DNA of 64,000 nucleotides from an uncultured Methanosarcinales archaeon (GTDB lineage Archaea > Nanobdellota > Nanobdellia > Woesearchaeales > GW2011-AR9). The stretch covers positions 69,585 to 133,584 of the forward strand of contig CAYFJV010000002.1 in assembly GCA_964343575.1 (NCBI GenBank). The letters are read 5' to 3'. Of the stretch, positions 2,080 to 62,596 are shown one piece after another; the first letter of the stretch is position 1, and each line of letters opens with the position of its first letter. The position numbers and the translations under genes are program-made. The notes beneath the pieces were generated by a model that saw nothing but the letters and a program-made list of their open reading frames with translations, was not told the origin of the DNA and did no database searches.

Positions 2080-2814
2080 TTAACTAAAGTTTTCATTCAA
2101 TTTAAAAAGAAATAAATGAAAGATGGCATTTACTAAAATGGGATAAGATGCAATTTGTGGTTCAAAGATATTCTTGTAATCTTCATTAGTTAATCTCATT
2201 TCTTTGTAGATCTTTCCTTTATTGAAGATTAACAACTTGATTATCCCTTCATCACTCACGAATTCAAAATTGAAATGGGCTAAGGAATTTCTAATCTTAT
2301 GATCTACAAACTTCAAAATAATTGGATCAGCAACTTGGTTTTTCTTAAAGACTTCCTGGATTAGTACAATTCTTGCTCCATTTGTGTCAAGATGACTTAA
2401 GGTTGAGTCTTGGAGATAAAGTTCCTTGGCCTTCTCCTTATCAAGAAAATAACTTAAAAGATCCAAGATTGATTCAAAGTGAAAAATAGTTGTGGAGATA
2501 TAAGAGTATAGTGCCGAGCTACCATCAAGAAAATAATTCTTCTTTTTCTCTCCAAGATTATCTCTGTGGTACCTTGTTATTTCTGCAACGGATCTTTCTA
2601 ATTTCTGTATGACCCTGGCCCTCTCATTTCTCTCAATTATCTTTGGGTCTTTGGGAGGACATTTTTTTAAAAGTTCATCAATAATTAGCTGGATTTCCTG
2701 GTTTATCTTTTGAACAAACATATCCCCTTGTTCTCCGAGTATGTCTGTTAGGTAAGCAGCAACATCTTCAGAATTTCTTACATTCAAAACCGCCATTTTT
2801 TTGATAAACCTCAA
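2080..2814 (-). CDS. Hypothetical protein, very AT-rich; C-terminal R-x4-H (RNSLAH) motif is reminiscent of HEPN
   Basis: 244-aa ORF with no recognisable family. It contains IRNSLAHFNFEF near the C-terminus. The stop overlaps the start of the downstream DRG GTPase gene. Confidence 0.35.
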   Translation of the reverse strand: MRFIKKMAVLNVRNSEDVAAYLTDILGEQGDMFVQKINQEIQLIIDELLKKCPPKDPKIIERNERARVIQKLERSVAEITRYHRDNLGEKKKNYFLDGSSALYSYISTTIFHFESILDLLSYFLDKEKAKELYLQDSTLSHLDTNGARIVLIQEVFKKNQVADPIILKFVDHKIRNSLAHFNFEFVSDEGIIKLLIFNKGKIYKEMRLTNEDYKNIFEPQIASYPILVNAIFHLFLFKLNENFS

Positions 2815-8920: not shown

Positions 8921-10147
8921 ATGAAAAAACTAGTTCTTCCAAACGGCTTAACAGTACTTTATCAAAAAAAGAAAAGCAAGACCGTTGTAGTGCAAGCGCT
9001 TGTTAAGGCAGGAAGCAATCATGAGCCCGAAGGGGAGCGTGGTGTTGCGCACATGATGGAGCATTTGCTTTTTGAGGGGACTTTCAAGAGGCCAAGCGGA
9101 AAGTTGATTGCAAATGAAATTGAGAAGCTTGGTGGAGATTTTAACGCTTATACGAGCTTTAATCGAACAAGCTATTATATCAAGGTTTTGAACAAACATT
9201 TTTCTATTGCTATGGATGTACTTGGAGATGTTTTACAAAATCCCTTATTCCAGAAAAAAGATTTTGAACGCGAACGAGGGGTTGTGCTAAAAGAGATCAA
9301 CATGATCTACGATGATCCCCGTTCTTATCAGTGGGTATTAATGCAAGGAAAGTTGTATCGTGAACATCCTGCTAGGTTTCCGAGTTACGGTAGCGTTGCG
9401 GATTTAAAGGAGATGAAAGTGCGCACCGTTCGCTCTTTTTTTGAGAAACAGTACGTGGCGAACAACATGATCCTTTGTATCGTCGGGAACGTACGTGATT
9501 GGAAAAAAGTGGTCAAACGTGAGTTTGGCATGATGCGTTCTGGTCCTGTGAAAGCTTTGCGCTATAAGAAGGAGAAACCTTTGCGTAAGAAGCAAAGCGT
9601 TGTTGAGATTCGTAAAACCTTCAATAGCCATTTAGCGATGGGTTTTCGCACAGTTACTCGTGAGCATAAGGATAGTTATGTGCTTGATGTGATTCAAGGG
9701 ATTTTAGGTCGTGGACAAAGTGGAAGGGTGTTTGCTGAGCTTCGTGGGAAGCACGGGCTTGCTTATGATGTGGGAACCGAACACATTGCAGAAGAAGATC
9801 ACGGCTATTTTGCGCTTTATGCAAGTTTTAGTAAGGAGAATAAAGCTAAGGCTGAACGCTTAATGCGCGGCGAGATTAAGAAGTTGCTTTCGGTAACTGA
9901 AGATGATATTAAAGAGGCTAAAACCTACCTCGAGGGAGAATATTATTTAGGTTTAGAAGAGCCGCAGCAGCTTGCAGACACCATGTTATTCTGGGAGCAG
10001 GTAGGCAATGCACACTGGCTTGAGAAATATTTGAAAGAGATTGAAAAAGTGACTGTTGCTGATGTTCGTCGTGTGGTTCGTAAGTATTTGCAGTATCCTA
10101 CTGTTGCTTTTATTACCGGGAATGGTTCTGGGAGGAAGAAGAAGTGA
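8921..10147 (+). CDS. M16 (pitrilysin/insulinase) family zinc peptidase
   Basis: Inverted zinc motif HMMEHLLFEG. The track ORF starts at 8900, but a TATA box at 8881-8890 favours the ATG at 8921 (MKKLVLPNGL). Confidence 0.75.
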   Translation: MKKLVLPNGLTVLYQKKKSKTVVVQALVKAGSNHEPEGERGVAHMMEHLLFEGTFKRPSGKLIANEIEKLGGDFNAYTSFNRTSYYIKVLNKHFSIAMDVLGDVLQNPLFQKKDFERERGVVLKEINMIYDDPRSYQWVLMQGKLYREHPARFPSYGSVADLKEMKVRTVRSFFEKQYVANNMILCIVGNVRDWKKVVKREFGMMRSGPVKALRYKKEKPLRKKQSVVEIRKTFNSHLAMGFRTVTREHKDSYVLDVIQGILGRGQSGRVFAELRGKHGLAYDVGTEHIAEEDHGYFALYASFSKENKAKAERLMRGEIKKLLSVTEDDIKEAKTYLEGEYYLGLEEPQQLADTMLFWEQVGNAHWLEKYLKEIEKVTVADVRRVVRKYLQYPTVAFITGNGSGRKKK

Positions 10148-11743: not shown

Positions 11744-11761
11744 AGTTATTTAAAGCTTTTT
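11744..11761 (-). promoter_or_regulatory. BRE/TATA-like motif (AAAGCTTTAAATAA on the minus strand) about 25-30 nt upstream of the tyrS ATG
   Basis: Recurrent AAAGCTTT + A/T-rich motif. Confidence 0.45.
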
Positions 11762-14067: not shown

Positions 14068-15108
14068 ATGCGTCTAACCAAACAAAAAATTGATGGAGTC
14101 ATCATAAAAATCCTTGGAGAACAAGGTTTATCCCTGGTGGAACTTCTTCAGGGGCAAGAAAACGTTTCTGAGTTTGATATTGCAAAAAAGCTCAAGAAAG
14201 ATATCAAAGTTGTTCGTAAGATGCTCTATTTGCTTTACAATCACAATTTAGTTTCTTTCACACGAAAAAAAGACAAGCAAAAAGGATGGTATATTTACTA
14301 TTGGACCCTTATGCTCGAATCTTTACGCTTTCAATACCTTAAACAGAAAAAGGAGACTCTTGCTCGGCTTGAAAAGATGCTTGAGCGAGAGAGAAAAGAG
14401 ATTTTCTTTGTCTCTCCAGATGGAAGCACTCGTTTAAGTTTTGATGAAGCAATGGAGTTTGACTTTCACTGCCCTGAGACGGGAGCGCTTCTTGAGCAAG
14501 AAGATAATGCTGAGCGTATAACTTTGCTTGAAAAGCGAATCACCGAACTTCGCAAAGAGATTGAAGCTGAACAAAAGTTCCGTGATGCTCAACGCAAGAA
14601 GAGAAGAGAAGAAGCGAAGAAAAAAGCAGCAAAAGAAAAAGCTCGAGAAGAGCGCCGACTTGCAAAAGAGAAGGCTGACAAGGAAAAAGCAAAAGAGGCT
14701 AAACGAAAAGCTAAGGAGCTTGAGAAGAAGAGGGCTGCTCGTGAGCGAGCAAAGGTTCGTGAGGCTAAGAGAAAGGCAAAAGAAGCTGCGAAAAAGAAAG
14801 CAGCAAAAGAAAAAGCTTTGAAGAAAAAGGAAGCTGAGCGTAAGAAAAAAGAGGCTGCAAAGAAGAAGAAGCAAAAGGCAGCAAAAAGAAAAGCAAGCAA
14901 ACGCAAGGTTGCTCGTAAAAAAGCGAGTAAAGCAAAAAAAGCAGTTAAGAAGAAAGTTGCTAAAAAGAAAAAAGTGGTGAAAAAGAAAGCCACAAAGAAG
15001 AAAGCTGCTAGAACAAAATCAAAAGCTTCTAAGAAAAAAACAGTTAAGAGAGTGAAGGTTCCTGCTAAAAAGAAAACTGTAAAAAGAAAGAGCGGGAGAA
15101 AAAAATAA
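14068..15108 (+). CDS. tfe: Transcription factor E alpha (TFIIE-alpha homolog) with an unusual ~190-aa Lys/Ala/Glu-rich C-terminal extension
   Basis: N-terminal winged helix with the GWYIYYWTL motif. The zinc-ribbon region is degenerate (a single Cys, FHCPETG). It is followed by a histone H1-like low-complexity tail (AKKKAAKEKAREE...KKKVAKKKKVVKKKATKKK). Confidence 0.7.
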   Translation: MRLTKQKIDGVIIKILGEQGLSLVELLQGQENVSEFDIAKKLKKDIKVVRKMLYLLYNHNLVSFTRKKDKQKGWYIYYWTLMLESLRFQYLKQKKETLARLEKMLERERKEIFFVSPDGSTRLSFDEAMEFDFHCPETGALLEQEDNAERITLLEKRITELRKEIEAEQKFRDAQRKKRREEAKKKAAKEKAREERRLAKEKADKEKAKEAKRKAKELEKKRAARERAKVREAKRKAKEAAKKKAAKEKALKKKEAERKKKEAAKKKKQKAAKRKASKRKVARKKASKAKKAVKKKVAKKKKVVKKKATKKKAARTKSKASKKKTVKRVKVPAKKKTVKRKSGRKK

Positions 15109-15152: not shown

Positions 15153-15422
15153 TTATCTTCGTCTTCTAGTTGTTCTTCGAGAAGTTGTTTTCTTACGAGC
15201 AGGACTTTTTTTCTTCTTTGCTGGAGACTTCTTCTTGATACCAAGAGCTCTCTCAATTACTGCTTCCTCTCGCAAAACTCGCATGGTCATTCTTTGAATG
15301 TTGGACTCCATTCCTGCAACACGTCGCTCAAGCATGATAAGCACACGCAAACTGTAAACAATTGCAGCTAAGGTTCCAATGATGGTTGCGAGAATAACTT
15401 GTAGTAAGGATAATTCTGCCAT
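15153..15422 (-). CDS. Small membrane protein with a basic C-terminal tail
   Basis: One N-terminal TM helix, then a K/R-rich tail. Confidence 0.35.
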   Translation of the reverse strand: MAELSLLQVILATIIGTLAAIVYSLRVLIMLERRVAGMESNIQRMTMRVLREEAVIERALGIKKKSPAKKKKSPARKKTTSRRTTRRRR

Positions 15423-15543: not shown

Positions 15544-15771
15544 ATGAGAAAAACGTATCGTGGAAGTGAAGCACCTGGTTTTCCAATGCTCACTTATGGG
15601 CTAGTTTTTGGAACTGTTTTATTGGCCTCTTTAGGAAGTTATGGCATATTCTCTTTGTCCGATGCTGCCAATGCCTCTCCAGAAATTGGTGGAATGGAAA
15701 GAATACTTGGGTCTGATCCTCTTTATGAAGATACTGCTGGGAGGTACTTTTCTTTAGAGAGAGAACCCTAA
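15544..15771 (+). CDS. Hypothetical small membrane protein
   Basis: 75-aa ORF with one hydrophobic segment; weak support. Confidence 0.25.
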   Translation: MRKTYRGSEAPGFPMLTYGLVFGTVLLASLGSYGIFSLSDAANASPEIGGMERILGSDPLYEDTAGRYFSLEREP

Positions 15772-15775
15772 GCCA

Positions 15776-15790
15776 AAGCTTTATAAAAAT
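15776..15790 (+). promoter_or_regulatory. BRE/TATA motif AAAGCTTTATAAAAA, 20-30 nt upstream of the aIF2-beta ATG (leaderless)
   Basis: Best example of the recurrent motif. Confidence 0.5.
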
Positions 15791-16238: not shown

Positions 16239-16544
16239 ATGGGATCAGATGTCTTTATTCTTGCCGAACATAATTCTCCAGAAGGTATTGTTATGGTACT
16301 CACTGATGCAGAGATCATTGGTCAAAAGTTTGAAACGGAGAAACTGCAACTTGATTTGTCCGGAAAGTTTTATGCTGGGGAAGAGAAGAGTCGTGAAGAA
16401 GTTTTGAAACGTTTGCAGAAGGCCTACATTGTGAACTTTACTGGAGAGCGAAGCGTTGCTCTTGGTCTAGAGTTAGGTATTCTTGATTCAGAGCGTGTGC
16501 TTGTGATTGGCGGCGTTGAGCATGCACAAGCTTGGCTTGGGTAA
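16239..16544 (+). CDS. Hypothetical conserved small protein
   Basis: 101-aa ORF directly downstream of aIF2-beta. Confidence 0.35.
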   Translation: MGSDVFILAEHNSPEGIVMVLTDAEIIGQKFETEKLQLDLSGKFYAGEEKSREEVLKRLQKAYIVNFTGERSVALGLELGILDSERVLVIGGVEHAQAWLG

Positions 16545-16549
16545 AAAGA

Positions 16550-17527
16550 CTACCAAACTGCAAGAGTCCTTGAAGATCTTCTTGGTTGAGCCCTTGGCAT
16601 CTCTGAGAGTGGGATGTGATGTTGAGAGTATAGAGTTTTCAAATCATGTGGATCTTCGTATTGCCCCACCCCTTCTAAATTATAATTGCTACAACCAGTT
16701 TTTACTTGGTCAGCACTAAGTCCTAATTGTCCCGTTAACTCTCTTGTTGCTCTGTCAACTGAAAAAGCAAGAGTTTCTCCTCGAATGTATGTTATCCTGG
16801 TCCCAACTCCCGGAGGACAGATACTGCTTGTATGCGCTCCTTCAACTCTAAGCTCCAAATTTGGAGCACCGGGCCCATCATGTACCAGAAGAATTCTGTT
16901 ATCTCCTGCAAAGAGATATTTTACTCTAGACCCATCTAGTTGGATTGGTCTGCTTGGTGTGGCCATAGAGGATCTTGATCTCCCTCTCCTATACTCAAAG
17001 GGTAGGCCTGCAGATTCATATAGCTCTGCAAGAGAACTAAGATCTCCACTTCTCGTAACTCTTTGCATCTTAGGTCCCTTCCCATAAAGGTTTGCTTGGT
17101 GGGAAGGATTCAAGACATCCAGTACCTGATAGCCCTCAAGCCCCCTTGGGAGAACAACAGTCGTGATTCTTCTACCACGAAGAGTATGTTCTCCTCCAAG
17201 GGTTCTAGCTCTTCTTCCTGTGGCCTTAGACAGGCCCGGAGTTCTAGGATAATGAACGAGAAGAAGTGTTCTTGAACAGTCATCATAAAGAGCAGTTTCA
17301 ACTTCTACCCCTGCAAGCATATCAATAAAAGACCTTTCTGGTTCTGGTGCTCTCACTCCTTCAGCTTGCGTAGAGCCCTGAGATTCTTCTCTTGCGTGTT
17401 GAAAGTTTGGGTTTTTAGGCTTTGGGCCCTTATTTGCTTTCCCTCCCCGACTAGGGTGGTGCGCATTTTTAGCAGCTATTCTTGCTCTTGTCTTTTCTCT
17501 TGCTCTTAATCTTGATTTCCTTGACAT
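16550..17527 (-). CDS. Arg/Gly/Pro-rich ORFan with a highly basic N-terminal arm; compositionally atypical (about 48% GC)
   Basis: 325 codons with no stop. The first 45 aa are R/K-rich (MSRKSRLRAREKTRARIAAKNAHHPSRGGKANKGPKPKNPNF) and the rest looks globular. GC is clearly higher than in flanking genes. A TATA-like box lies 30-40 nt upstream. Confidence 0.45.
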   Translation of the reverse strand: MSRKSRLRAREKTRARIAAKNAHHPSRGGKANKGPKPKNPNFQHAREESQGSTQAEGVRAPEPERSFIDMLAGVEVETALYDDCSRTLLLVHYPRTPGLSKATGRRARTLGGEHTLRGRRITTVVLPRGLEGYQVLDVLNPSHQANLYGKGPKMQRVTRSGDLSSLAELYESAGLPFEYRRGRSRSSMATPSRPIQLDGSRVKYLFAGDNRILLVHDGPGAPNLELRVEGAHTSSICPPGVGTRITYIRGETLAFSVDRATRELTGQLGLSADQVKTGCSNYNLEGVGQYEDPHDLKTLYSQHHIPLSEMPRAQPRRSSRTLAVW

Positions 17528-17645
17528 TTATTTCTTCACTTTTTCTTGGAAATCTAAATTTTATATAAAATCTTAGATATTAAAAAAGAATATTCTCTTG
17601 TTTTGTGTTTTTTTAGGGCTGTTTTTTGGTTTTTTGTGAAAAAAG

Positions 17646-20600
17646 TTACTTCCCCATAAACGCGCCCAGACCCACTTGCTTATCTTTGGCTTTACCAAAG
17701 ACGGTGTCAATGTTATGTTTAAGCAGATTAATGGTTTGCTTCAAGTAGGGAGAAAAATCGTATTTCTGCGCAAGCTCAAGGCTTGGTTCAAGATACTTCA
17801 CTACCGATCCTTCAGAGATGGTAAAAATTATCTTTCCTGTTTTACAAGTATGGCACTTATTGCTTATCGGTGGGCGACGATATTTCGTGTTACATTTCCC
17901 GCAACGAAAGCCTTGCATAGAAAACTTTCTAAAATTCCCTTTGATATCCGCTAAAAAGTGTCGCTGGATTACCATTCGAGCAACATCATCCATATCAACT
18001 GCGCGCACTTTTCTTGCGATTTCCATTTGACCGAATAATTTTTCTTTCATACTCGGCAAAATTTTGTAGGCTGAGCAGTTTACTCCTTTGTTAAAGTTGT
18101 CAACATGGTGTGTAAAACCAAAACCTTCATACTGTTCTGGAGTATCAAGCTTGTGATCAAGCTGTACGATTTTCTTTTTTTCTTTACCATAACGCACTTC
18201 CCAAGGAGCTTTCATTTCCAACGCTGCTTCATAAAGTTCTAAAGGATAACGCCATTCCATATCAACTCCTAAGACTTGGTCGTCAACCTCACTTGGAGAA
18301 AGTACTGGGGTGAGTACCAGCGCAGCATCCATGGTTGATCCCCTACTACTTGGAAGATATCTCTTGGAGAAATTAAGTAAACCATCAAGAAGGAGCATTA
18401 CTGCTGCTTCGTCACCATCGCAGTCCCTTCGCAGTCCCGCATGGTACATTGGGTGCGTAATAAGCCCTTGCGTGTGTGCAAAACCAATAATTCTCCCCAC
18501 CGTTCCTGCAGAAATGTGCGGAGCTAAACCAATTACTAAATGACCCACAAGATCTTTTTCATTTTTTACTTTATAGAAGGGTTTGAGACCATAGTGGTTG
18601 ACCAGCATATCATCAATAAACTGCGCTACCCTTGTGAGCACTTGCGCAGCTGATTCTTCAAGCACATCAACGGCAGGCAAGATGACATCTTGTGGCCTCA
18701 TTTCCAAAATTTGGTCGTCATTTTCAAGGTATTTTCCATGAATGTCTCTTTCATAACCAAGTTCTTTGAGTCTTTCAATACTTGTTCCAATCTCTTTTGG
18801 CTTGAAATGGGTAAGAGGTAGTTCAGTACAATCGTAGCGCGTGGTGCCATCTTTATTTACGGCAACGTTGTGTTTTGCTCGCAAGATGCCTTTCATTAAG
18901 TGTTCAGCAATTTTTTCTCTGTTGCTTGTCCCACGGACCCCTTTGATAAGATCGGGAATGATTTTGGTATTGAGTTTCTTTTTGAGAGCATCTACAATTT
19001 CGATAATCTCAATCTTTTGTAAGAGTTTTTCTTGCTCAAACTCTTCTGTTGGTTCTCCTGTTTGATGGCAACAACGAAAAGGACTAAGCTTACCTTCTTT
19101 GGTCTTGAACATTTTAATGGGAGCGTTAATCTCTCCCTCTTCAAGAGCTGCTTGAATGCTTCGCATTCTTCCTCCTTCTTCTCCAACTGGAAAAAGTACG
19201 TGAGGAGAGCCCGTCATTTTGCGCATCTTGGCTTTTTCTGGTCTTCCCATTCGCGCGCCGATAAAAGTTCCTGCCTTATCACGCTGTTTTATGGGCGCGT
19301 GCTGATTAAGGTATCTAAGAGGATTTTTGTAGCTTCCTTCTTTGAGAGTTTTGAGAGAGAGAGAAAGATTTTTGATCTCTTCTAGCGTTGAAAAATTGAG
19401 TAAGAAAGAGAGTACTTGACTCTCTGTTTTCTCAAGTACAATATTTTCTTTATTGATTAATTGATGAGGGATCCCTAGCAATTCGAGTGCTTGCTTTGCT
19501 TCTTGGCAAGCTTGCTCTTTTTTGTCAAAAGGAATGATGATTTTTTTGATCTCTTCGCTCTTTTCTTCCTTCTTTAGTTTTGAAGAGGAGAGAATAGATA
19601 TAAGAGTTTGAAATTGTCGCATAGCCAGTAGTTTCCAAAAGTAAGTAAAGTCAGAGTGTAATGGTACTTGAAGCTGCTTGCTAATCGTCTTTGCTTCTTG
19701 AAATGTTGGTGAGAAGAAAAGTGGCTTTTGGATGTATTTGAGAAAATTTTCTGTATCTATTTTGAAATCACTTGCAGCCTTGCTTAAATGCTCTTTAGTT
19801 GGAATCTCTACTTCGATTGCATATTTTTCTCTTATTGTTTTTTCTACTTCTTGCGCCCACCATTCTGGACAATACCCCGCGGGGACCAGTTTGTGTCCAT
19901 TCTCAGAAAAATCTCCATAATTAAACAAGATATCTCCAAGGTAAAGTACTTCCTCAACCTCGTTAGCATGTTGTTTTGCTAGCTCTTGGGTAGGAAGTTG
20001 TAACACATTTCCATTATTGAGCCGTACAATCGGTCCTTCAAGCGTGTCGCAAACAGTTACCGTCGCTGCTTTTCCGGGTCGCTCTACTTTCATTTGCGTT
20101 CCGATGGCAATGAACTTGTCAAGCACCACAAGCGTCGCTGGGTGTAAAGCTGCTGCAGAAAACCCAGAGGTTCTTCCTCTTCCGTAACGAAGACGAAATC
20201 CTCCCTCTCTTACTGGATGTGTAAGTACGGGTCTTCCTGCAACCATATCTGAAATAAAGGTATTGTTTGCCTTTACCTTTACTTCTTCCTCTTTTCCCTT
20301 TGCATTTTTGTCTTTTGGTCCTGCTTTTTTTTCCTTCTTCTGACCGTGCTGCGCATGAATCTTATCTTTAAGATCAATAAATTCTTTGATGAACTCCCAC
20401 TCTAAATCAAAATCCTTTCCCCACTTGCTTAGTCGTTTCCATAGTTTTGGTGCCTTTTGACAAAGTCCTTCTGCTACTACCAAACACATTCCTCCACGAA
20501 TGAGGTTTGTAGCAATTCTTGGAAGGTCTTTATAATTAGAAACCTCAATTTTTTCAGTTGGATCCCCGTCAACTTCAACAGGCAAATGAGAGAGCATAAA

Positions 20601-21251
20601 GTTTAACTCTTCATCACTTGGATGGTATTGGAGGTTGGTTACCCGATCATGATAATCATGCACTTCTGCAGTGTAACGTTTTACTTCGGTTTCATTCGGA
20701 TCGTAAGGAGCATAACCCATCTTTACTCGAACATAATCAGCAAGAATAACACTTGTGGAGGAAGCGGTACCCCCTGCTCCTCGAATTGGTCCAGCGTATC
20801 TTAGCGCAAGGTATTCTTTTCCATCCTTTCTTTTCTTTACTTCAATACCGATGAAGCCCTCCAAAGGTGCTGCCACAATCCCAAGTGTGAGGTAGGCAAA
20901 GCCTGTTCTGATTCCCACTTCAATTGCTTCTTTTTTGTTTTTGAATTTACAAAATTTTTCTTTGGCAACTTCTTCGGCGATTTTGAAACCGACGCGCCAA
21001 TCAAGCGTTCCGTATTCTTTTTCTAACTCTTGAACACGCTCAGGAATATTTGTTTCTAGAATTTGGGGGGCCACAATGCTCACAAGTCCAAGCACCCGAT
21101 CTGCCATGGTGTTTGCCAAGATGATTTCTGGTTTGTCTTCGGGATCGAGTTGTTTTGCTCTTGCTTGGTTAGCGATGGTGTAGCAGATGTCGACATCCTT
21201 TCGTAAATTTTCGAAGTATTTACTAATGGTTGGGGAAGCGACTATTGCCAT
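17646..21251 (-). CDS. polC: DNA polymerase D large subunit (DP2)
   Basis: 1201 aa with conserved DP2 segments throughout, including the catalytic region (GDEAAVMLLLD) and C-terminal Zn fingers (CGKCNTKYRRPPISNKCHTCK). Length is typical; no intein is apparent. Confidence 0.95.
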   Translation of the reverse strand: MAIVASPTISKYFENLRKDVDICYTIANQARAKQLDPEDKPEIILANTMADRVLGLVSIVAPQILETNIPERVQELEKEYGTLDWRVGFKIAEEVAKEKFCKFKNKKEAIEVGIRTGFAYLTLGIVAAPLEGFIGIEVKKRKDGKEYLALRYAGPIRGAGGTASSTSVILADYVRVKMGYAPYDPNETEVKRYTAEVHDYHDRVTNLQYHPSDEELNFMLSHLPVEVDGDPTEKIEVSNYKDLPRIATNLIRGGMCLVVAEGLCQKAPKLWKRLSKWGKDFDLEWEFIKEFIDLKDKIHAQHGQKKEKKAGPKDKNAKGKEEEVKVKANNTFISDMVAGRPVLTHPVREGGFRLRYGRGRTSGFSAAALHPATLVVLDKFIAIGTQMKVERPGKAATVTVCDTLEGPIVRLNNGNVLQLPTQELAKQHANEVEEVLYLGDILFNYGDFSENGHKLVPAGYCPEWWAQEVEKTIREKYAIEVEIPTKEHLSKAASDFKIDTENFLKYIQKPLFFSPTFQEAKTISKQLQVPLHSDFTYFWKLLAMRQFQTLISILSSSKLKKEEKSEEIKKIIIPFDKKEQACQEAKQALELLGIPHQLINKENIVLEKTESQVLSFLLNFSTLEEIKNLSLSLKTLKEGSYKNPLRYLNQHAPIKQRDKAGTFIGARMGRPEKAKMRKMTGSPHVLFPVGEEGGRMRSIQAALEEGEINAPIKMFKTKEGKLSPFRCCHQTGEPTEEFEQEKLLQKIEIIEIVDALKKKLNTKIIPDLIKGVRGTSNREKIAEHLMKGILRAKHNVAVNKDGTTRYDCTELPLTHFKPKEIGTSIERLKELGYERDIHGKYLENDDQILEMRPQDVILPAVDVLEESAAQVLTRVAQFIDDMLVNHYGLKPFYKVKNEKDLVGHLVIGLAPHISAGTVGRIIGFAHTQGLITHPMYHAGLRRDCDGDEAAVMLLLDGLLNFSKRYLPSSRGSTMDAALVLTPVLSPSEVDDQVLGVDMEWRYPLELYEAALEMKAPWEVRYGKEKKKIVQLDHKLDTPEQYEGFGFTHHVDNFNKGVNCSAYKILPSMKEKLFGQMEIARKVRAVDMDDVARMVIQRHFLADIKGNFRKFSMQGFRCGKCNTKYRRPPISNKCHTCKTGKIIFTISEGSVVKYLEPSLELAQKYDFSPYLKQTINLLKHNIDTVFGKAKDKQVGLGAFMGK

Positions 21252-21425
21252 AACAATTTTTAGGGATTTTCTGCTTTATATTTCTTGTTCTTGTCCAATG
21301 GTCCAGTGCAGATAGTGAGGATGGAATATAGTCTTGCCTGGTCTTACTATTGTTCTTTCTAGGCTAAAGGAGATGAGGAGAGAATGCGAGAAGGGAAAAA
21401 GAAAATGAAAAAAAAGGATATGAAA

Positions 21426-21833
21426 CTATACCCAAGATACTAAAATTGCTGCAGCAACTAAAACAGTTACTAACCAATACGCTCCATTAAGGAAAAAGAG
21501 CTTAACATCTTTTCTCTCCCAAAGCACAGGGCCCAAAGCAAGCGGCATCATAAACCCTAACCAAAGCCAAAAACCAAGCATGAGCCCTTGTGGAACTGTT
21601 GCTGCTCCTGTAAGATTTACAAAACGGTCAAGCACATAGACCATAACTAAGGTTGCTAGAAAGCCAATGAACATGTGCCCAGCCATACCTTCTTTTTGCG
21701 CCTTTTGCATATCTTTTTTCTTGAGGCCGGTTAGTTTCATCCACATTGATCCAAAGACTTTTGGGTGATACCAGACCATTCCAAGTACCATTGCAGCAAG
21801 CGCTGCTACTAAAACAGAGACATAGTTTACCAT
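21426..21833 (-). CDS. Hypothetical integral membrane protein (4 TM)
   Basis: Hydrophobic 135-aa core from MVNYVSVLVAALAAMVLG. The upstream Lys/Asn-rich extension in the track ORF is probably not translated. Confidence 0.45.
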   Translation of the reverse strand: MVNYVSVLVAALAAMVLGMVWYHPKVFGSMWMKLTGLKKKDMQKAQKEGMAGHMFIGFLATLVMVYVLDRFVNLTGAATVPQGLMLGFWLWLGFMMPLALGPVLWERKDVKLFFLNGAYWLVTVLVAAAILVSWV

Positions 21834-21925
21834 TGTATTTACCTCTTTTTGTTTATTCTTTTGTTTGTTTTTTAGATTTGTTTTGCTACTTATCTTATTG
21901 AGATAGTTAGAAGAAAGAATTTGCA

Positions 21926-39379: not shown

Positions 39380-41809
39380 GTGATGTTAGCGTCAGCTCAA
39401 AAAAGAGGACATTGTAGGGATAGCAAGCGTGGGCAAGTTACCCTGTTCATAATTCTAGGAATGGTTATTCTTATCTCCGTTGGTTTCATGCTAGCGCTTA
39501 CTGCCATGATTCAGAAAGGACAATTGCAAGTTGCTGAAGAAGATGTAGTTTCCAATTTATTTCAAACCGAGAGTTTGCGTTTGTTTATAGATGATTGTTT
39601 GTATGATGCCCTTGAGGAGGGTTTAGTTCAAATTGGAGAGCAAGGGCGTTTGTGGAAAGAGCAGGATGGTGGCACTGTTCCTTTTGTTGCAGGAGAGACC
39701 GGAACCTTTCATTTTGGAAAACAGGTTTATTATGCAATCAGTTATGATAACAACAGTAATCATAGCGAGGCTTACCCTTGTTCCAATTCCACAGATCTTT
39801 CTCCTGATTATTGTCGCTACAGTTTTCCTGAGGAAGGAAAATTTGGTGAGAAGGAGCATTTGAGTGCAAGTGCAATTGAAGGAGATTTGCTCCGATACAT
39901 TACTCAGGAAGCAGCTCTTTGTATGGAAGAAGTGCTTCAAAGTAATTATTCTTTGTTCGTCCCGGTTGTTGCTGAAGAAATTGATCTTTCTTTAGATATT
40001 GCTACAAATGGCATTGCTGTAGAAGCAAGCTATCCTTTACATCTTGAGCAAGGGGGAGAAGAATACACCCAACTTACCGAGTTTGATTTTTTTTACTCTA
40101 GCTCTTTGAGCTCTTTTTTACTTCAAGCAGTAACACGCCCTATTAATGAAGAGCAAAGTGATCCAACTTATCTTTTTTCAGAAGCTGATTTGCAAAGTTC
40201 GGAGCCCTATCAACTTTTAGATCCCACTTTTACAAAAACAGAGGCGAGCAGTGGGGATACTATCATTCAATATAACTTGAACCCGGGAGTGATTCTTGAG
40301 AACCAAGATTATTTCTTTCAATTTGCTTTAGAAAATCGCCCTCCTGCACTTGACTACATTGAGCGTAATGCTTGTTTAAGTTATGATTATTTGGTTTTAG
40401 AGGGAGAGCAAGGAGATATGGGAAAATTACTTTTAGATGCATCAGCTAGTGACCCTGAGGAGGATAGCGTTACTTTTTCTTTGCTTGACGATCATTTGCC
40501 AGTGCCACTTAGTTCGGTAGATTCTGATTCTTGGAGTGCAGACTTACAAGGTGCGGCTCCAGGTTATTATAACTTCACTCTTTTAGCGGCAGATGAACAT
40601 GGTAGGACTGATTTGCAAAATGTTCGCGTCCTTCTTGATCGAGAAATCACCGCTGAATTTTCGGTCGCTTCCCCTTATTGTACTTTTGCAGGAGACCATA
40701 GTTGTTTACTCTCTACCGAAGATCCTTTTTTTGTAACACTTACTAACCCAGGAGAATCGTTAGCAGCAGACGTTGATGAAGTGCTTGAGCTTAGTTACGA
40801 TGGTTTTAATGGAGAGAGCTTTGTTTCAGGAGCTTTGTATCCTTCCTTACTTGGTGCAGAGAGTTGTATTGGTCTTCCAATGGAAACTGAGACTAGCCCA
40901 GCATCTTGTAACATTAGTGCTTACGACCCATTCATTGAAAGTTGGAAAGATTCTTTGTTGGGCCCGAGCAGTACGCACCCCTACTTAAGCCAAACGACGC
41001 CAGATGGCGAACTTAGTGTGGCCTTTTTTACAGGTTATTGCGGCGCCTGGGAGTATGAAAATAAGGAGTTCTTACATTTTGAAGTTGCAGAGTGTATCCC
41101 TCATGAAAATCTTGAGAATCCCTTCGCTTACCCTTACCACCACCAAACTTTTGATCCGATCAGCGGAGAATATCTTGGTCTTGATGAGGAAATTAGTCCT
41201 TTCTTGGCGGCCCACAGTTGTTGTAATATGAATGGAACTTACAAGGCAGCAGGCTCAAGTTGTTATGAAAGTGCTCCTGGTTGTTATGGAGGTATTGTTG
41301 GTTGGACTTCTAGCGCTCCCGGTCTTGTCTTGGAGCAGGAAAGCGATACTTGTAGTGGGCTTCGTGGGAATGTTTGTGGGACTGGAAGTTCTAAAATAAG
41401 CGAATTGTATCAAGGAAACCTTGTTTGTGGAAGCAGTTTTGATGTTTCTTGCTCTTTAGATCAAATCCCAGATGTCTGTGAAGGAAGAGATGCTTGGGGT
41501 TATGTTGATGAGAACTTTGATGGTATTAACGATGCTTGGTGTCACGGGCAAATGGGTTGTAGTGCTCTTTGCTCACTCGGCGATGGCGGGTCAGTAGTTT
41601 ATTCAGGAGGAGGAGTTGCTCCAAGTGGGCCAGAGGGCATTAACCAACAGGCAGTTTTGGGACAGGCAAGTGATGATGCTTTTGCGCCTTTCGATCCTTT
41701 TTTCTCTTTTAGTTGTGGATGTAGTTCTGCTACAGAAGGAAGTGTTTGTGATGCTAACTTTGATGGAGAATTCTTAGGGCAGTGTGTTTCTAGTGTTTGT
41801 GTTGAGTAG
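39380..41809 (+). CDS. Large (809 aa) acidic, Cys-rich extracellular protein with a class III (prepilin-like) signal peptide
   Basis: The N-terminus is ...SKRG|QVTLFIILGMVILISVGFMLALTAM, a basic tract then G|Q then a 22-aa hydrophobic stretch. The mature part is D/E-rich with many paired Cys residues. Confidence 0.6.
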   Translation: MMLASAQKRGHCRDSKRGQVTLFIILGMVILISVGFMLALTAMIQKGQLQVAEEDVVSNLFQTESLRLFIDDCLYDALEEGLVQIGEQGRLWKEQDGGTVPFVAGETGTFHFGKQVYYAISYDNNSNHSEAYPCSNSTDLSPDYCRYSFPEEGKFGEKEHLSASAIEGDLLRYITQEAALCMEEVLQSNYSLFVPVVAEEIDLSLDIATNGIAVEASYPLHLEQGGEEYTQLTEFDFFYSSSLSSFLLQAVTRPINEEQSDPTYLFSEADLQSSEPYQLLDPTFTKTEASSGDTIIQYNLNPGVILENQDYFFQFALENRPPALDYIERNACLSYDYLVLEGEQGDMGKLLLDASASDPEEDSVTFSLLDDHLPVPLSSVDSDSWSADLQGAAPGYYNFTLLAADEHGRTDLQNVRVLLDREITAEFSVASPYCTFAGDHSCLLSTEDPFFVTLTNPGESLAADVDEVLELSYDGFNGESFVSGALYPSLLGAESCIGLPMETETSPASCNISAYDPFIESWKDSLLGPSSTHPYLSQTTPDGELSVAFFTGYCGAWEYENKEFLHFEVAECIPHENLENPFAYPYHHQTFDPISGEYLGLDEEISPFLAAHSCCNMNGTYKAAGSSCYESAPGCYGGIVGWTSSAPGLVLEQESDTCSGLRGNVCGTGSSKISELYQGNLVCGSSFDVSCSLDQIPDVCEGRDAWGYVDENFDGINDAWCHGQMGCSALCSLGDGGSVVYSGGGVAPSGPEGINQQAVLGQASDDAFAPFDPFFSFSCGCSSATEGSVCDANFDGEFLGQCVSSVCVE

Positions 41810-42714: not shown

Positions 42715-45700
42715 ATGGTGGAAACGAGTAAAAAGAGGACCCTTGTAGATGTAATTCTAGCTCGAGCTTTTTTCTTTGGCCTTCTGTTTATTCTTACTGT
42801 GATTTCGCTTAACGGCGCCTTTGCTGTTGGCTTAGAAGGGTGTTACACTTATGCGGGAGGAAGCCCAGACCTTTTTTGTCAAGATGATGTCTTAGAAGAA
42901 GATGCTTTGGCTGACTATGAGCTCTTAGTTGGAGACGGGCTTTTTGATGATTATTTTTTCCCTGGGCAGAGTTGTGATGTTTTTCCTGACCTTTGTGAAG
43001 AAGTGACTTGCTCTTTGGATTGTAGCACGCAGGCGATTGGTTCTTGTGAATTTGAAGGAGGACAAGCAGTTCCAGATGATGAATATGATTTGTGGTGTAG
43101 TTGGGGTTGTTGTCAAATCCCTTCAGGTTATTGTGGTCAAGTAGATCTGCGCTCTGTTTGTGTGGAAGAAGCTTCTTACCAAGGATATTCTATCGATGAA
43201 GTAACTTACATCAGTTCAGCTTACAGTCCGATCACCACAGATGAATGTGTAGATCTTTGTGTTGCAGGATTGGAGGATGCGAGCTTAAGTGGTTACATCT
43301 TTGATGCAGCGGACGGAGTAACTCCAATTGAAGGAGCAACAGTTGAACTTCGATCGGGAGTTACAGCTCAAAGTGATGTGGCAGGATTTTATCAATTTCA
43401 AACAGTGAGCCCTGGAACTTATGTGGTAAGTGTTAGTGCAACTGGCTATTCTGGAGCTTCGCAGACAATAACTTTGGAATCTGGGGAAGTTGAAGAACTT
43501 GATTTCACTTTGAGCGTTGCAGACCAAGTAGCAAGTCTTTCTGGAACTGTGGTGGATGAGTTTGGTGTTGCAGTAGCTGACGTTTCTTTATGTTGGACTG
43601 GCCCAGGGGTTGGTTGTACTACTTCTGCAGTAGATGGTTCTTATTTGGTTAGCGAAATCTTACTTGGAGATTATACTTTTACTCTGAGTAAGTTTGGTTA
43701 TGAGACAAGTAGCGATAGTCTAAGCATTCAATCAGACCTGGTCTATGATTTTGTTCTCTTCTCTCAACCGTTCCAAGGTATTAGTGGAAGCACCTGGATT
43801 GATCCAGAAGGAGATGGTTTGCTTCTTGGCGGAACAGATTACTTGCAGTATGGGGTAAGTATCTTCGTAGATGGGATCTATCGGGGAAGTTCACAATACC
43901 CTGATGGAGATTTTAATATTTATCTTGATGAAGGAGATTATACCATAACAGCGAGCTACCTTGATTTTGTCTCTCCTGAGTACAGTGTTACTGTTCTTGC
44001 TGGACAGTCAAGTTCTGTTGATCCTGTGTTAACACAGTACATTGGAGAGTGTAGTTATGGTCAACCGGACGAGTCAAAACCAGTTGCAGAATTACATGCG
44101 GTCGCGGTTGCTGGTTCTCTTGCTGTAGATTTGAGTTGGGATAAACCTTGTGCTGAGGTGAGTGGTTATAATCTTTATCGTGACGGTGAGCTACACATGC
44201 AACTTTCACCTTTCGCTTTAAGTTTTACCGATTCAATTGATTTGGAATGGGGAATGGGTTATATCTATGGAATCCAAGCGATTTATACTGATGGTCCGAT
44301 GATTGATGACCAACCTCAAACTCGCTTTTCAGAGATTACTGAGACAAGCATCACTCTTGGAAATGCCGCTTGTGAAGGAAAAGAACCCGGAGATCTTTTT
44401 TGTCTGGCTGACGATCTAAAGTCAACTTACACTTGCGATATTTTCAACACTCTTTTGATCAGTACAAGTTGTGCTGCTTTAGATACAAGTACGAGCGATT
44501 ATTATTGTGTAGAATCAAGCCCAGGATTTGCAACCTGTAAAGACGCAGGTATGTGTAACGCCTTTACTCTTGGCGCCGATCCTTTTGGTTTGTACCACAG
44601 CGAAGAAGTTTGTTATGGCCCTTACCTTGGCGCAGAGAGCGGTTATGAGAATTATTGTTACTATGATTACACTTCTGGAGTTGTTGATCAGTGTACGAGT
44701 TGCGTGGAGGTAGAAAGTTGTTTTGATTATGTTAGTGAGGGGGCTTGTGGTATCAACAACTGTTTGGGAGTTGGTTGTCAATGGATCAACGGAAGTTCTT
44801 CTTCTGGAGAAGGAGATATTAGTGCTTATGAAGAAGAGAGCGAACCTTTCTTAGATTATGGTTACCTTTTCCCTGTGAGCGAGGAGACGGGCCATGGTTA
44901 TTGCGCCCCGCTTGAGTATGAAGAGGATGATAATTGCGCCCTTTGTTCTCCTGGAAGCAGTCTTTTTGAAAACAACTTGTGTACTCCTGAAGTTTGTACT
45001 GAATTGGGCGCTTGTTACTCTGATAAGGATTTGCCTTTGAGTACTTGCCATTCCTGTGGCGAAGAAAGTAGTCCCGAGGTGAACTGTTACAGTTATGCTT
45101 CAGAGCTGGAATGTACTGCAGGAAGCCCAACTGTGAACGATAATGGACAAATTTTGCGTTCAGCAGATAGCTGTACTTGGGGTGCTTGCGCTTGGATTGC
45201 CGATGACTTTGATCCTGCCGGTGGTTATTGTATCAAAGATGGGGATGCCAACCGTATTGATGATTGTTCTGAGTTTGTCTCAGGAGATTATTCTTCTTGT
45301 ATTGCAGATACTGCTCCGCCAGTGACTTCTTTGCAAGCAGAGGGCTTTGCAATTGTATCTGAGACATTTTCACAATTAGAATTTGTTGCTGTTGATAACG
45401 AGAGGATGGGGAGTCTGTGGTTCTGTTTGGAAAGCGCTGATGCAAGTGATTGTACTGATTTTGAAGCCGCAGATTATCCTTTCACCTTGCAGGGAGAAGA
45501 AGCTCTTTTGGAACTTAACATGAGTGAGTCAAGTTTTTTACAGTCAGAATTGGTTGATGGCGAGACTTACAAACTTCGCTTCTACTCCGTTGATGAGTTC
45601 TATAACCAAGAATCTGTACAAGAAGCTTTTGTTTTCGTTGATAACAAACTTCCCGATTTTACTGTTGTAACTGAGCCAAGCATAGATGGAGATGTTGTAG

Positions 45701-48700
45701 ATCTCTTAGTCTATCTTACTGATTTGAGCGAGCCAGTGAGTTGTAGTTTTACATTGGAAGAAATTTTGCCTCCTGCTGCAGAGCAAGTTATTGGGTTTGA
45801 ACGTGACGAGGACAAAGAATACACTTTTGTAGGCCTTGGGGCTACTCTTGCCGAGTTGAGTGTTTCTTGTACTGATGATCATGGAAACTCTTTTGTGCAT
45901 GAAGAGACCCTTAGTTTTGATCTAGAACAAGATATTAGTATTGTTTATCCTCCTTTGGGTGGCTCTGTTTCTGAGACCACAATTATTTTTGAGATTGAGA
46001 CCGCAGTGTCTGCAAGTTGTGACTTGTATTACGATAATGATGGCGACCTTATCTTTGATTATCTAAGTAACTTTAACAGTATCGATATTGATAATAAGGT
46101 TCACGAAACTAACCCGATTCCTGGCTTCTTCGAAGGAGAATATGTTGGTAACTTACAGGTGATTTGTCGAGAATCTTTGGATCAGAGCCAAGTGTTAGAA
46201 GATTATTTTGATTTTGTCGTAGATTTTACCGGGCCAGAGACACAGATTATTTTGACTGAAGGGACCAGAGAAGAAACCCCAATTGCTTATGGTTGGGAAG
46301 AATACTTTATCTCTGAAGTGCAGGTGGACTTTAGTTGTGAGGCAGATGGATTTGATTGTGACCAAAGTTTTTATTGTCTTGGAGAAGGTTGTGAATTTGC
46401 AAGTGCCCCGGGTTATGTAGAGTACACTGGAAGCGGCAGTTTGTTTGTAAATGAAACAACAGAAATTTGTTATTACTCTACAGATCTTGGCGGTTCTACT
46501 GTTTATCCTACTTGTGGAACCATCATCGTAGAGGGCTTTGGCATCAATTTAGTTCAACCGGACCCTTATTTCTATCAAGGAGAAGTTTATGGAGTAAGTG
46601 CAGCCGATAGCTTTGATTGGGAAGTTATGAGCAAGATTGATACTCAAGGCTGCGTTTTTGATTTCACTTCAGAATTTGATTATCATGGGGTCCCTCTAAT
46701 CCGAACTTTCTCGGAAAGTCTTAGTGGAGAAAATTACTACCTTTATTCTCCTTTCCCTGGAGATGGGGCGAGCGCTTACGACGCAATTGGCGGGCTTAAA
46801 GTCCTTTATGTGAAATGTGAAGATTACCAAGGAGAGATTGGTCCTGCACAGAAAATGAACCTTGAGTTCGATCCTTCTGCTCCAAGTATTAGTGATGCTT
46901 ACGCTGAGCCAGATTTTATCACCGAAGGAGTTGTTACTCATCTTTATGTGACCACCGATGATCCTACGCTTTGTAGGTACAGTGATAACTCAGATGGGGA
47001 CGGAAGTACTGAATTTGCAACTATGCCATTCAGTTTCCCTGGTTACGATGAAGGAGAATTGCATCTTGCTCATCAAGACGATTTTATTTTCAGTTTTGTT
47101 GGTGCAACAAGAGATTACAGCTTAAATGTACAATGTATGAACGGGGCAGGAGACCTTTCTGAAGTTGAAACCATTGATTTTAGTGTAGATTATACTGTTG
47201 CAGGAAACATTATGAGTGTTGCTCCGAGTGGTTTTATCTCTGGAGAAAACGTTACTTTACTTGTTGAGACTAACAAAAACGGCGTTTGTTCTTACGAAGA
47301 AAATGGCAGTTCAGTTGATTTTGAAGTAACTGGTGGCACAAGTCACAGCCATTTGATTGGGTCTCTTGAAGAAGGAGATTATCAATACCTTGTCACTTGC
47401 CATATCGCAGAAAATGTACGCACTGCCGAGATTATCTTTACTGTAGATCAAACTGCGCCAACTGTGACCATGGTAGAGGATGGTTCTTACTCTTGTAGTT
47501 TGGAGCAAGTGAGCATTTATGTTTACACAGACGAAGAAAACATTAGCACTTATTACTATCAACTCTATCAAGGAGAATCAGATCTTGGAGAATCTTCTTT
47601 GAGTACTTACTTTACTACTACTAATGATACAGCCCCAGATGATGAAGAAGCAGTGCTTATTGGAGAAGGAACCTTGTTAGGGGACAATGGTACTGTGATT
47701 ACTGGACTTAGTTTAGAAGAAAATGAGAGTTACTTTGTGAAGGTTGCAGCAAGCGATGTTGCTGGAAACACTGGCGGATACACTTCAAGTGATGGTTTTA
47801 TTGCAAGTGGTTCTGACCTTACTGTTTGTGCTGCTGATGGTGATGCGCCAAACGTTCGCGTACAAACCAACAGTAGTAGTTGTACTGAAGTCACCGCCGA
47901 AATTATTTGTGAGGATGAACTTGCTTGTAGTAGCATTAGTTATGGACAGAGCACAAGTTCCGAGACCTGCTCTGCCGATTCAAGTTATTATGGACAAAAA
48001 CTTTCCTTCTCAAGCTCTGGGTGGGTTTGTTACTCTGCAAGCGATCCAAGCGATAACCAAGAGAATGGGAGTGCTCAAATAACCTTTAGTGATAATGATG
48101 GAGATGGCATCTCTGATAGTTGTGATCTTTGTAGTGGTACTCTGTCTGGACAAGATGTTGATGCAGAAGGTTGTGGTCTAGGGCAGGTTCCAGATGATGA
48201 GCGAACAAATGATGAAGATAACGATGGTTTGCCAGATCATTGGGAAAGAGTCTATCACAGAGAAGGTGTTTGTCCTTTGTTTGCCGAAGCAATAGACTCG
48301 GACAGTAATGGTATTACTGATACTGATGAAGATTATGATGGGGACGGTTACACTAACTATGAAGAGTACATTGCTGGTTTAGACCCTTGTGTTGCTGATG
48401 CTCCGAGCACCTTTATTGATGACAATGATCTTGACAGCGAACTTCTGGGCCTTCCTGGAAGTGGAGAAGGAAAGGAAGGGGCCGATGTTGTAGCTATTAT
48501 CTTCTTTGTCATTGGCGCACTGTTCATGCTTGGTGGTGCGGGTTATCTTTATTATTATTATAATTACACTCCAGAAGGGAAGGTTCTTTTGAAGCAAGGG
48601 GGGAAAGGGAGTCTGAGAGGAGTCGGTTCTGGCGGCGCTCTTGGAAGTAGCGTTGGTGGCGGCCTATATCGTCAAGGAATTGGTTCTCGATCAGCAGGTG

Positions 48701-53858: not shown

Positions 53859-54075
53859 TTTTTTTGTTTCTTGTTTTATTTTTCTGTTTCATTGTGCTTG
53901 GCTTCGTTTAGTTTATTTTGTTCTTTTCTTGTTCATTTAGTTCTCTGTTAACGCAATCTTTATATATGCAAAATGGTTTTTGCTTTATTAATTTACAGTC
54001 GTAAAAACTCATTACAACTTGCTTGTAGCAATCTAGTTGCTTGCAAATGTTGTTGTGGGATCACAAAGAGGTGTA

Positions 54076-54458
54076 TGATGATGAACTTGTTTGCAAACAA
54101 AAAAGGACAAGGACTTTCTTTAACTGTTATAATTGTTGCAGCGCTTGCTTTGATTGTTTTAGTTGTTTTAGTTGCTATCTTTTTAGGAAGGATTGGTACT
54201 TTCGGAGAGGGAGTGAGTAAAGCGGGACAAGCAGATTTGTTGGAACTTAAGGTAAGTTATGGAACTTGTCATCCTGCAAAAGCGCAGGAAACAGTGTTTT
54301 TGAATGCTTATGCTGCTGCTGAAGGACTTGATGATTTAACAGCTCAGCAAGAAGAAAAAGATGCAGCCTATCAAGATCTAAGTAGTGAGATTAGCAGATG
54401 TAAGTCTGCTGCTAGTGATGAAGCAAATTGCCTATCCTTTGGCTGTGCTTGGGGATAA
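54076..54458 (+). CDS. Type IV pilin-like protein (class III signal peptide)
   Basis: MMMNLFANKKG|QGLSLTVIIVAALALIVLVVLVAIF. The track ORF begins at 53973 with an unlikely Cys-rich leader. Confidence 0.55.
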
Positions 54459-54470
54459 GAGGTTAGATAG

Positions 54471-54740
54471 ATGAGTGCCAGAAAGGGACAAGCGAACACC
54501 TTTTGGATTATCATTGGAGCAGTTATTGCTTTGGTGGTGATGGTTGTTTTGCTCTTGATGTTTACCACAAAGGGGAACATTTTAGAACAAGGGGTGAGCA
54601 GCTGCGAAGGTAAGGCCGGGAAATGTGAACTTGGTACGACTTGTCCCACTGGCACGCTGAAATCTCCTTTTGAGTGCGGCAGCCCCGATGAAGTTTGTTG
54701 TATCGGCGATATTGGCGGCGACGACGATGACGAAAGCTAA
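54471..54740 (+). CDS. Small type IV pilin-like protein (89 aa)
   Basis: MSARKG|QANTFWIIIGAVIALVVMVVLLLMF followed by a Cys-containing C-terminal knob. SD GAGGT lies 8 nt upstream. Confidence 0.55.
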   Translation: MSARKGQANTFWIIIGAVIALVVMVVLLLMFTTKGNILEQGVSSCEGKAGKCELGTTCPTGTLKSPFECGSPDEVCCIGDIGGDDDDES

Positions 54741-54855
54741 ACTAGTTGGTCGTCGTGGACAAGCCATGCCCTCGGTTGTTGTCATTGTTTTGGCAATCGT
54801 CTTTTTTGTGGTTGCCTTGCTTATTGTTGCTAAGATCCTCGGGTATTTAGAATAG
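54727..54855 (+). CDS. Mini-pilin (42 aa): class III signal peptide plus hydrophobic helix only; absent from the ORF track
   Basis: MTKAKLVGRRG|QAMPSVVVIVLAIVFFVVALLIVAKILGYLE. The start overlaps the stop of the preceding gene. Confidence 0.45.
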   Translation: MTKAKLVGRRGQAMPSVVVIVLAIVFFVVALLIVAKILGYLE

Positions 54856-54891
54856 AGCCGGCTTTGGTTTGTTAGTTGAGGTGTTGCCAAG

Positions 54892-55026
54892 ATGTGGAAC
54901 AAGAAAGGGATGGAATTTTGGCAATTGGTGTTGATTGTTCTTGCAGTGCTTATCATGCTTTTCTTTATTGTCTTTTACAACCAATTAGGAGATAAGTTGC
55001 GTGAAATTATAGGGGGCTTTTTTTAG
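54892..55026 (+). CDS. Mini-pilin (44 aa), not in the ORF track
   Basis: MWNKKG|MEFWQLVLIVLAVLIMLFFIVFYNQLGDKLREIIGGFF. SD-like GAGGTG lies 9 nt upstream. The stop is 1 nt before the next ATG. Confidence 0.45.
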   Translation: MWNKKGMEFWQLVLIVLAVLIMLFFIVFYNQLGDKLREIIGGFF

Positions 55027-62560: not shown

Positions 62561-62574
62561 AAAGCTTATAAAAG
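62561..62574 (+). promoter_or_regulatory. BRE/TATA motif AAAGCTTATAAAAG about 25-30 nt upstream of the ZIP transporter ATG at 62597
   Basis: The motif lies inside the N-terminal extension of the track ORF (62543), which argues for the downstream start. Confidence 0.5.
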
Positions 62575-62596
62575 GGAGTTTTGTTTTCTTGGAACT

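Follow-up and report, generated by a model that had tools for sequence, protein, structure and literature searches.

Why does a long reading frame with a strongly basic product stand among replication and translation genes that are otherwise shared, in the same order, by related archaea? This question is raised by an ORF of 325 codons, here called the orphan, in a 64,000-nt stretch of archaeal DNA (the window, which always means the whole stretch that was analysed). The orphan and the genes on its two sides are laid out as follows.

16550-17527, minus strand: orphan coding sequence, ATG to TAG, 325 codons, product of 35.9 kDa with a pI of 10.1.
17393-17527, minus strand: part encoding the basic N-terminal arm (codons 1-45, delimited by charge count), after which a K/P/G-rich linker follows.
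16239-16544, plus strand: DUF424 gene, the convergent flank (Pfam PF04242, E 2e-21), 5 bp from the orphan stop.
17646-21251, minus strand: gene of the PolD large subunit DP2, the upstream flank, with homologs carrying PF03833, PF24844 and PF24846; a 118-nt spacer separates it from the orphan.

A sequence-only reading had placed the ORF between aIF2-beta and the PolD operon. This is right on the PolD side, where DP2 adjoins, and wrong on the other side, where the adjoining gene is DUF424 (16239-16544) rather than aIF2-beta. The same reading saw no mobile-element genes nearby, and the neighbours are indeed syntenic housekeeping genes.

The 325-codon ORF is present exactly at 16550-17527 on the minus strand, as had been reported. 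To judge its length, the 1101-nt slot, i.e. the whole stretch between the genes flanking the orphan, was shuffled 2000 times with dinucleotide content preserved. The longest stop-free run in the shuffles had a mean of 88 codons and a maximum of 256, so that the open frame, being longer than in all shuffles, is not a product of chance. GC content by codon position follows the order GC1 > GC2 >> GC3 in all five segments of the ORF, the first 69 codons included (GC1 0.51-0.61, GC3 0.25-0.37). In a third-order, three-periodic Markov coding model, for which the remaining window genes served as the training set, the annotated frame scored best of six (0.008, compared to -0.22 to -0.56). This score is also the lowest of 47 window genes (mean 0.145 ± 0.063; 2.2 sd below the mean). 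The low absolute value is in keeping with the atypical amino-acid content described below. By length, codon periodicity and best frame, the orphan looks like a genuine protein-coding gene.

Signals that might direct its expression were read from the same stretch.

17562-17569, minus strand: TATA-box-like TTTATATA, read from the sequence, 35-42 nt upstream of the ATG; putative promoter.
17536-17540, minus strand: Shine-Dalgarno-like AGTGA, 9-13 nt upstream of the ATG; putative ribosome-binding signal.
17639-17644, minus strand: T6 run directly after the DP2 stop; putative archaeal terminator between DP2 and the orphan.
16543-16547, minus strand: T5 run about 2-3 nt past the orphan TAG, read from the sequence and lying partly within the DUF424 stop codon.

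The TAA stop of DP2 lies at 17648-17646. Boxes of the TTTATAAA or TTTAAATA type precede many genes of the window, mostly 23-30 nt upstream of the ATG. The promoter motif that recurs, (A)AAGCTTTATAAA or TTTAAATA, has its end some 21-23 nt from the start codon (e.g. 15780-15790, 11745-11755 and 62565-62577). From the spacing of this box, most transcripts of this genome would be leaderless. In the window, operon-internal or leadered genes are preceded by GGTGA or AGGTG, located at -13 to -7 (e.g. those starting at 52539, 59553 and 53310). The orphan fits this leadered pattern, with a predicted leader of about 12 nt. Delimited by the oligo-T run behind DP2 and a second one past its own stop, and preceded by a TATA-like box and a short leader of the Shine-Dalgarno type, the orphan would form its own transcription unit. 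These signals suggest that it is expressed.

The predicted product begins with the arm that had been noted earlier as strongly basic, and the count bears this out: residues 1-45 hold 14 K+R against 1 D/E, giving a net charge of +13 and a pI of 12. When the orphan protein was permuted 5000 times, a net-charge cluster as strong as that of the arm arose 48 times (about 1%). The protein as a whole is hydrophilic (GRAVY -0.70). Single-sequence AlphaFold2 predictions, made with no alignment, reached a mean pLDDT of 33.7 (whole protein) and 31.3 (residues 64-325), and the models are unusable. A helix at residues 3-21 (pLDDT about 75) is the sole confident part; otherwise the low-confidence models (pLDDT 31-34) are mixed alpha/beta and hold no beta-sandwich. 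The lack of a confident fold is expected for a prediction with no alignment, and would likewise be expected for a product that does not fold. By eye, several short hydrophobic stretches resemble beta-strands (TLLLVHY, ITTVVLP, RILLVHD and RITYIRGETLAFSV), and the body includes the tryptic peptide VTRSGDLSSLAELYESAGLPFEYR. An internal duplication, suspected from the two 'LLVH' motifs, was not significant, with 61 of 500 shuffles scoring equally. Taken at face value, the product would be a 36-kDa basic protein in which a disordered K/P/G linker joins an Arg-rich N-terminal helix to a hydrophilic body, the latter probably ordered only in part. Going by charge alone, its most likely activity would be non-specific nucleic-acid binding via the basic arm.

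The properties described so far also bear on the possibility that the ORF is a non-functional passenger, that is, a piece of recently inserted or decaying DNA that is unexpressed or not under selection. Such a passenger might well show the lowest coding score in the window and a composition typical of disordered or unfoldable sequence, as seen in the GRAVY and pLDDT values, and it might be a singleton with no homolog anywhere searched, as the orphan is. On the other hand, a frame of 325 codons, unmatched in any of the 2000 shuffles, is not expected to last unselected, and the codon phase is uniform along the ORF. In addition, the slot is filled to within 5 bp of the neighbouring gene in a compact genome, and plausible expression signals are in place. 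We therefore consider a passenger rather unlikely.

Whether the gene is foreign was assessed from its composition. The sequence-only reading had called it compositionally foreign, at about 48% GC against 36-40% in its neighbours. The elevation is real and the figures are not: the ORF has 45.1% GC (47% in its peak 400-nt window), the neighbouring genes have 39-41% and the window has a mean of 40.05%. Values of 45-46% are also reached by other genes of the window. Split by codon position, the GC content of the orphan is 0.549 (GC1), 0.512 (GC2; z +3.2 versus window genes) and 0.291 (GC3), the last being slightly lower than the mean of the 49 other ORFs (0.333 ± 0.047; z -0.9). The synonymous-codon score is 0.150, compared to 0.133 ± 0.051 for resident genes, and the codon-usage deviation G/n, obtained by a leave-one-out G statistic, is 0.256 and thus in the middle of the range of window genes (0.06-0.51).

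What sets the orphan apart are its amino acids. Arg makes up 11.4% of the protein versus 3.9% in window genes (z +4.0), and the fraction of G+A+R+P is 35% versus 22% (z +4.4), the highest of 50. The ratio R/(R+K) is 0.74 versus 0.37. The earlier description of an Arg/Gly/Pro-rich body is hence accurate. Because the protein is rich in Arg, Gly, Ala and Pro and poor in Lys and Ile, the extra GC falls only on the first two codon positions. AGA and AGG account for 92% of Arg codons in the orphan versus 45% in the window's other genes, and the observed/expected ratio of CpG is 0.30; both values are extreme, at the edge of the range of resident genes but inside it. The anomaly of the orphan is one of amino-acid composition, not of mutational background. 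With GC3, synonymous-codon score and G/n all resident-like, the label 'foreign' does not hold, and the comparison of GC3 and codon usage with the genome, which the same reading had proposed as a check, largely places the orphan with the resident genes.

Some other genes of the window are of note with regard to composition. The ORF at 2080-2796 (minus strand, 238 aa) is another atypical gene: its coding score of 0.009 is about as low as that of the orphan, 10 of its 10 Arg codons are AGA/AGG, its observed/expected CpG ratio is 0.26, and its one Pfam match is a weak HEPN-type hit below the cut-off (E 9e-4). The ORFs at 39383-41809 and 42715-49140 (plus strand, 808 and 2141 aa) combine high GC2 (0.43) with low GC3 (0.30) and may encode giant surface proteins typical of DPANN archaea.

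The history of the locus can be read from related genomes. DP2 homologs place the organism among DPANN archaea labelled Woesearchaeota/Nanoarchaeota. The DP2 proteins of the nearest relatives are 64-68% identical, the closest sampled one 68%. Synteny was drawn from the contigs of the five closest DP2 proteins; a search of genome contigs with DUF424 yielded one distant locus only (L002). The relatives have a conserved block, which runs SpoIIM-Cdc6-DP1-(x)-DP2 on one side of the junction and DUF424-aIF2β-small-TFEα-Hjc-MBL-HAD on the other, and DUF424 orthologs are present in all relatives examined. At the junction of DP2 and DUF424, the relatives show the following.

L003, the nearest relative, 9520-9735: 216 bp, geneless.
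L006, 9604: 1 bp.
L008 and L009 (7652-7694 in L008): 43 bp.
L004 and L005 (9646-10905 in L004): an unrelated 373-aa gene.
L007, 7643-7700: an inversion breakpoint, with the block from HAD to aIF2-beta flipped.

The orphan is missing from this junction in every relative examined and is an extra gene in a block that is otherwise conserved. In the nearest relative, tblastn found orthologs for 13 of the 15 block proteins around the orphan (41-92% identity) and none for the orphan; the second block protein with no counterpart there is the product of a 75-aa ORF at 15544-15771. Since the orphan is absent and its neighbours are syntenic, the data indicate a lineage-specific gain, and the orphan slot shows a presence/absence polymorphism relative to relatives at a conserved locus. 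A search for flanking direct or inverted repeats and target-site duplications at the orphan gave only short repeats at chance level. No tRNA target, integrase or transposase lies near it, the single tRNA of the window being 9 kb away.

Two potential sources at the junction itself were rejected. The orphan is not a relic of the PHP-like gene of L004, to which it has no similarity in any frame (best BLASTP E 0.99); that 373-aa gene itself has only a sub-threshold PHP_C match (E 0.011). Nor could a vestige of the orphan be detected in the 216-bp spacer of L003: local alignments were at the level of chance, being equalled by 54 of 300 and 42 of 300 shuffles. The spacer and the orphan have in common the 10-mer GTGAAGAAAT before an ATG. 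The 373-aa gene resembles the orphan in that it occupies the same slot, is co-directional with DP2 and is missing from the other relatives. However, the two sequences are unrelated, and the 373-aa gene has an ordinary Lys-rich composition. Judged from these arrangements, the junction of DP2 and DUF424 behaves as a small hotspot of insertion and rearrangement across related genomes.

Other parts of the block vary as well. The spacer between DP1 and DP2 holds a DUF1761 gene (135 aa) in the window (21252-21925) and in L003 (5586-5891), an unannotated 313-aa protein in L004 (4939-5880), and a CYTH-NUDIX fusion in L006 (4929-5990); in L007 and L008 it is empty. Many DP2 homologs from related lineages (P0023, P0024, P0028, P0038 and others) are 1370-1725 aa long and contain an intein with LAGLIDADG domains (PF14890, PF14528); the DP2 of the window (1201 aa) has no intein, and the MCM of L003 is intein-bearing. 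The TFE-alpha of the window (14068-15108, plus strand) has a C-terminal extension of about 170 residues, almost all Lys, Ala, Glu and Arg. It is 346 aa long versus 273-297 aa in relatives, and only its first 166 or so residues align to the L003 ortholog. An 89-aa protein (15153-15422, minus strand) with one hydrophobic helix, an KKKSPAKKKKSPARKK...RRRR tail and no Pfam family has a 77-84% identical counterpart at this position in every relative examined, which marks it as a conserved, unannotated DPANN mini-protein. The 75-aa ORF mentioned above (plus strand) lies between this mini-protein and aIF2-beta. It lacks both a Pfam match and a counterpart in any of the relatives, and may be either spurious or a second orphan. 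At some distance from the block, 53973-55026 (plus strand) is a run of tandem small ORFs (161, 89, 61 and 44 aa), each with a hydrophobic N-terminal helix. Those of 161, 89 and 44 aa start with a short basic stretch (...KKGQG/LSL..., ...RKGQAN/TFW... and ...NKKGME/FWQ...), and their N-termini resemble class III (type IV pilin-like) signal peptides. An antisense 124-aa ORF within this run (54582-54956, GC3 0.50) looks spurious.

With the junction and the composition taken together, a recent transfer of a compositionally foreign gene from a GC-richer donor can be weighed. It would account for the absence of the orphan from relatives and for its position as the amino-acid outlier of the window, as given by its G+A+R+P fraction, GC2 and R/(R+K) ratio. 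Its GC3 is, however, below the host mean and its synonymous codons are host-like, which implies that any transfer was not recent. Furthermore, no donor homolog was found in the databases and there are no integration signatures. A recent transfer is thus unlikely.

To find relatives of the orphan protein, several collections were searched. A k-mer-seeded HMMER search of 5.8 billion protein clusters had no match besides the orphan itself, and an exhaustive HMMER scan of 1.84 billion representatives also returned the orphan only, so its earlier designation as an ORFan stands. No family was matched in Pfam at E <= 1 or in NCBIfam at E <= 10. At lenient thresholds, PHROGs, PADLOC and PDB sequences gave no match. 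No homolog was found in IMG/VR viral and JGI metagenome contigs, nor by tblastn against INPHARED phages and PLSDB plasmids; the viral contigs with homologs that the sequence-only reading had suggested looking for are absent from IMG/VR and INPHARED. LAGLIDADG, GIY-YIG and HNH motifs and defence-system profiles were sought in the orphan and not found (Pfam, PADLOC). A homing endonuclease or defence gene lodged between conserved genes was accordingly rejected for want of a Pfam or PADLOC match. A ribosomal or housekeeping nucleic-acid-binding protein was rejected as well: no cellular profile matched in Pfam or NCBIfam at the thresholds given, and no homology to a ribosomal, RNA-processing or other housekeeping protein, which the sequence-only reading had named as evidence that would speak against its own view, was detected. 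Comparison of the orphan with the rest of the window in any frame, as a check for duplication, gave noise only. The only other record of the orphan is a 1551-bp ENA contig, which is 100% identical. This contig was assembled separately and covers the end of DP2, the whole ORF, DUF424 and the end of aIF2-beta.

These searches bear directly on the proposal that the orphan came from a small virus with an ssDNA or ssRNA genome, as a domesticated or integrated jelly-roll capsid-like protein whose arm bound that genome. The jelly-roll capsids of circoviruses/CRESS viruses, nodaviruses and tombusviruses have basic N-terminal arms. The orphan is like such capsids in that some 45 N-terminal residues, rich in Arg and Lys, stand ahead of a larger body; the net charge of +13, the beta-strand-like hydrophobic stretches and the lineage-specific insertion would all suit this origin. 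In contrast to jelly-roll capsids, the orphan lacks any sequence or profile similarity (no match in PHROGs, viral contigs, phages, PDB or viral proteins, the 1.84 billion representatives included). Viral genes such as Rep, RdRp or an integrase are missing from its surroundings, and there are no flanking repeats. Its silent sites, including GC3, are native, and the low-confidence models are mixed alpha/beta instead of a confident beta-sandwich. Sequence, linkage and composition thus offer no positive evidence for a viral capsid, and we regard this origin as very improbable.

A structured non-coding RNA, or a true gene on the other strand or in another frame that leaves the ORF incidental, would fit the mildly raised GC content, an RNA folding z-score of -2.5 to -3.3 and an antisense ORF of 133 aa at 16686-17087. 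However, Rfam gave no match, whether at gathering thresholds or with E <= 10, and the strong three-base periodicity of GC rules out a non-coding RNA. Seven control coding segments gave folding z-scores of -0.1 to -3.45 (two of them at -2.9 and -3.45), and the values of the orphan region fall inside this range. Neither the antisense nor the alternative-frame ORFs match Pfam, and their coding scores are clearly negative; the 133-aa ORF has wobble positions in common with the orphan. This explanation is scarcely tenable and largely refuted already. An assembly chimera that joins foreign DNA to an archaeal contig, as a unique gene of odd amino-acid composition might suggest, is of negligible probability, because the separate 1551-bp metagenome contig (L001) matches across the locus and spans both junctions at 100% identity; in addition, GC3 is native and the junctions are gene-tight.

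With moderate confidence, we therefore take the orphan to be a genuine, taxonomically restricted gene, gained in this lineage and encoding a basic, partly disordered protein. It would have been gained in this DPANN lineage at the convergent 3'-3' junction at which the gene of the PolD large subunit meets the DUF424 and aIF2-beta genes. The host-like silent sites would reflect either long residence or a gene that was native from the start. A gene of 325 codons, compared to spacers of 1-216 bp in relatives, makes de novo birth uncomfortable. It seems likelier that the gene was acquired from an unsampled source and that its silent sites equilibrated later than that it was born at the site.

Hypothetical proteins are known to make up a large share of DPANN proteomes (PMC8204110). 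The orphan is like other taxonomically restricted orphan genes of DPANN archaea in having no homolog, in its syntenic absence from relatives and in belonging to a small, reduced genome. Compared to typical DPANN orphans, its 325 aa are long and its Arg-richness is extreme for an AT-rich genome; furthermore, unlike DPANN orphans in variable regions, it lies inside a core block of replication and translation genes. Most likely, it is an ordinary orphan gene of a kind that is common in DPANN genomes. That it holds a functional novelty, such as a new fold, a capsid- or chromatin-like nucleic-acid-binding protein from an unsampled DPANN virus or plasmid, or a lineage-specific accessory factor of the adjacent PolD module, appears quite improbable. 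An accessory factor would have been recruited at a junction that repeatedly accepts genes, as seen from the 373-aa gene of the other lineage.

The orphan adds one more gene of its kind to a phylum that is noted for its hypothetical proteins; no expectation is overturned. It also serves as a worked example that GC content driven by amino acids, at GC1 and GC2, must not be taken to imply a foreign origin where GC3 is native. For this lineage, the locus provides a clean, datable gene gain within an otherwise rigid block of replication and translation genes. If expression together with nucleic-acid binding or a capsid fold were shown, the orphan would be a lead on the poorly known mobile elements of DPANN archaea.
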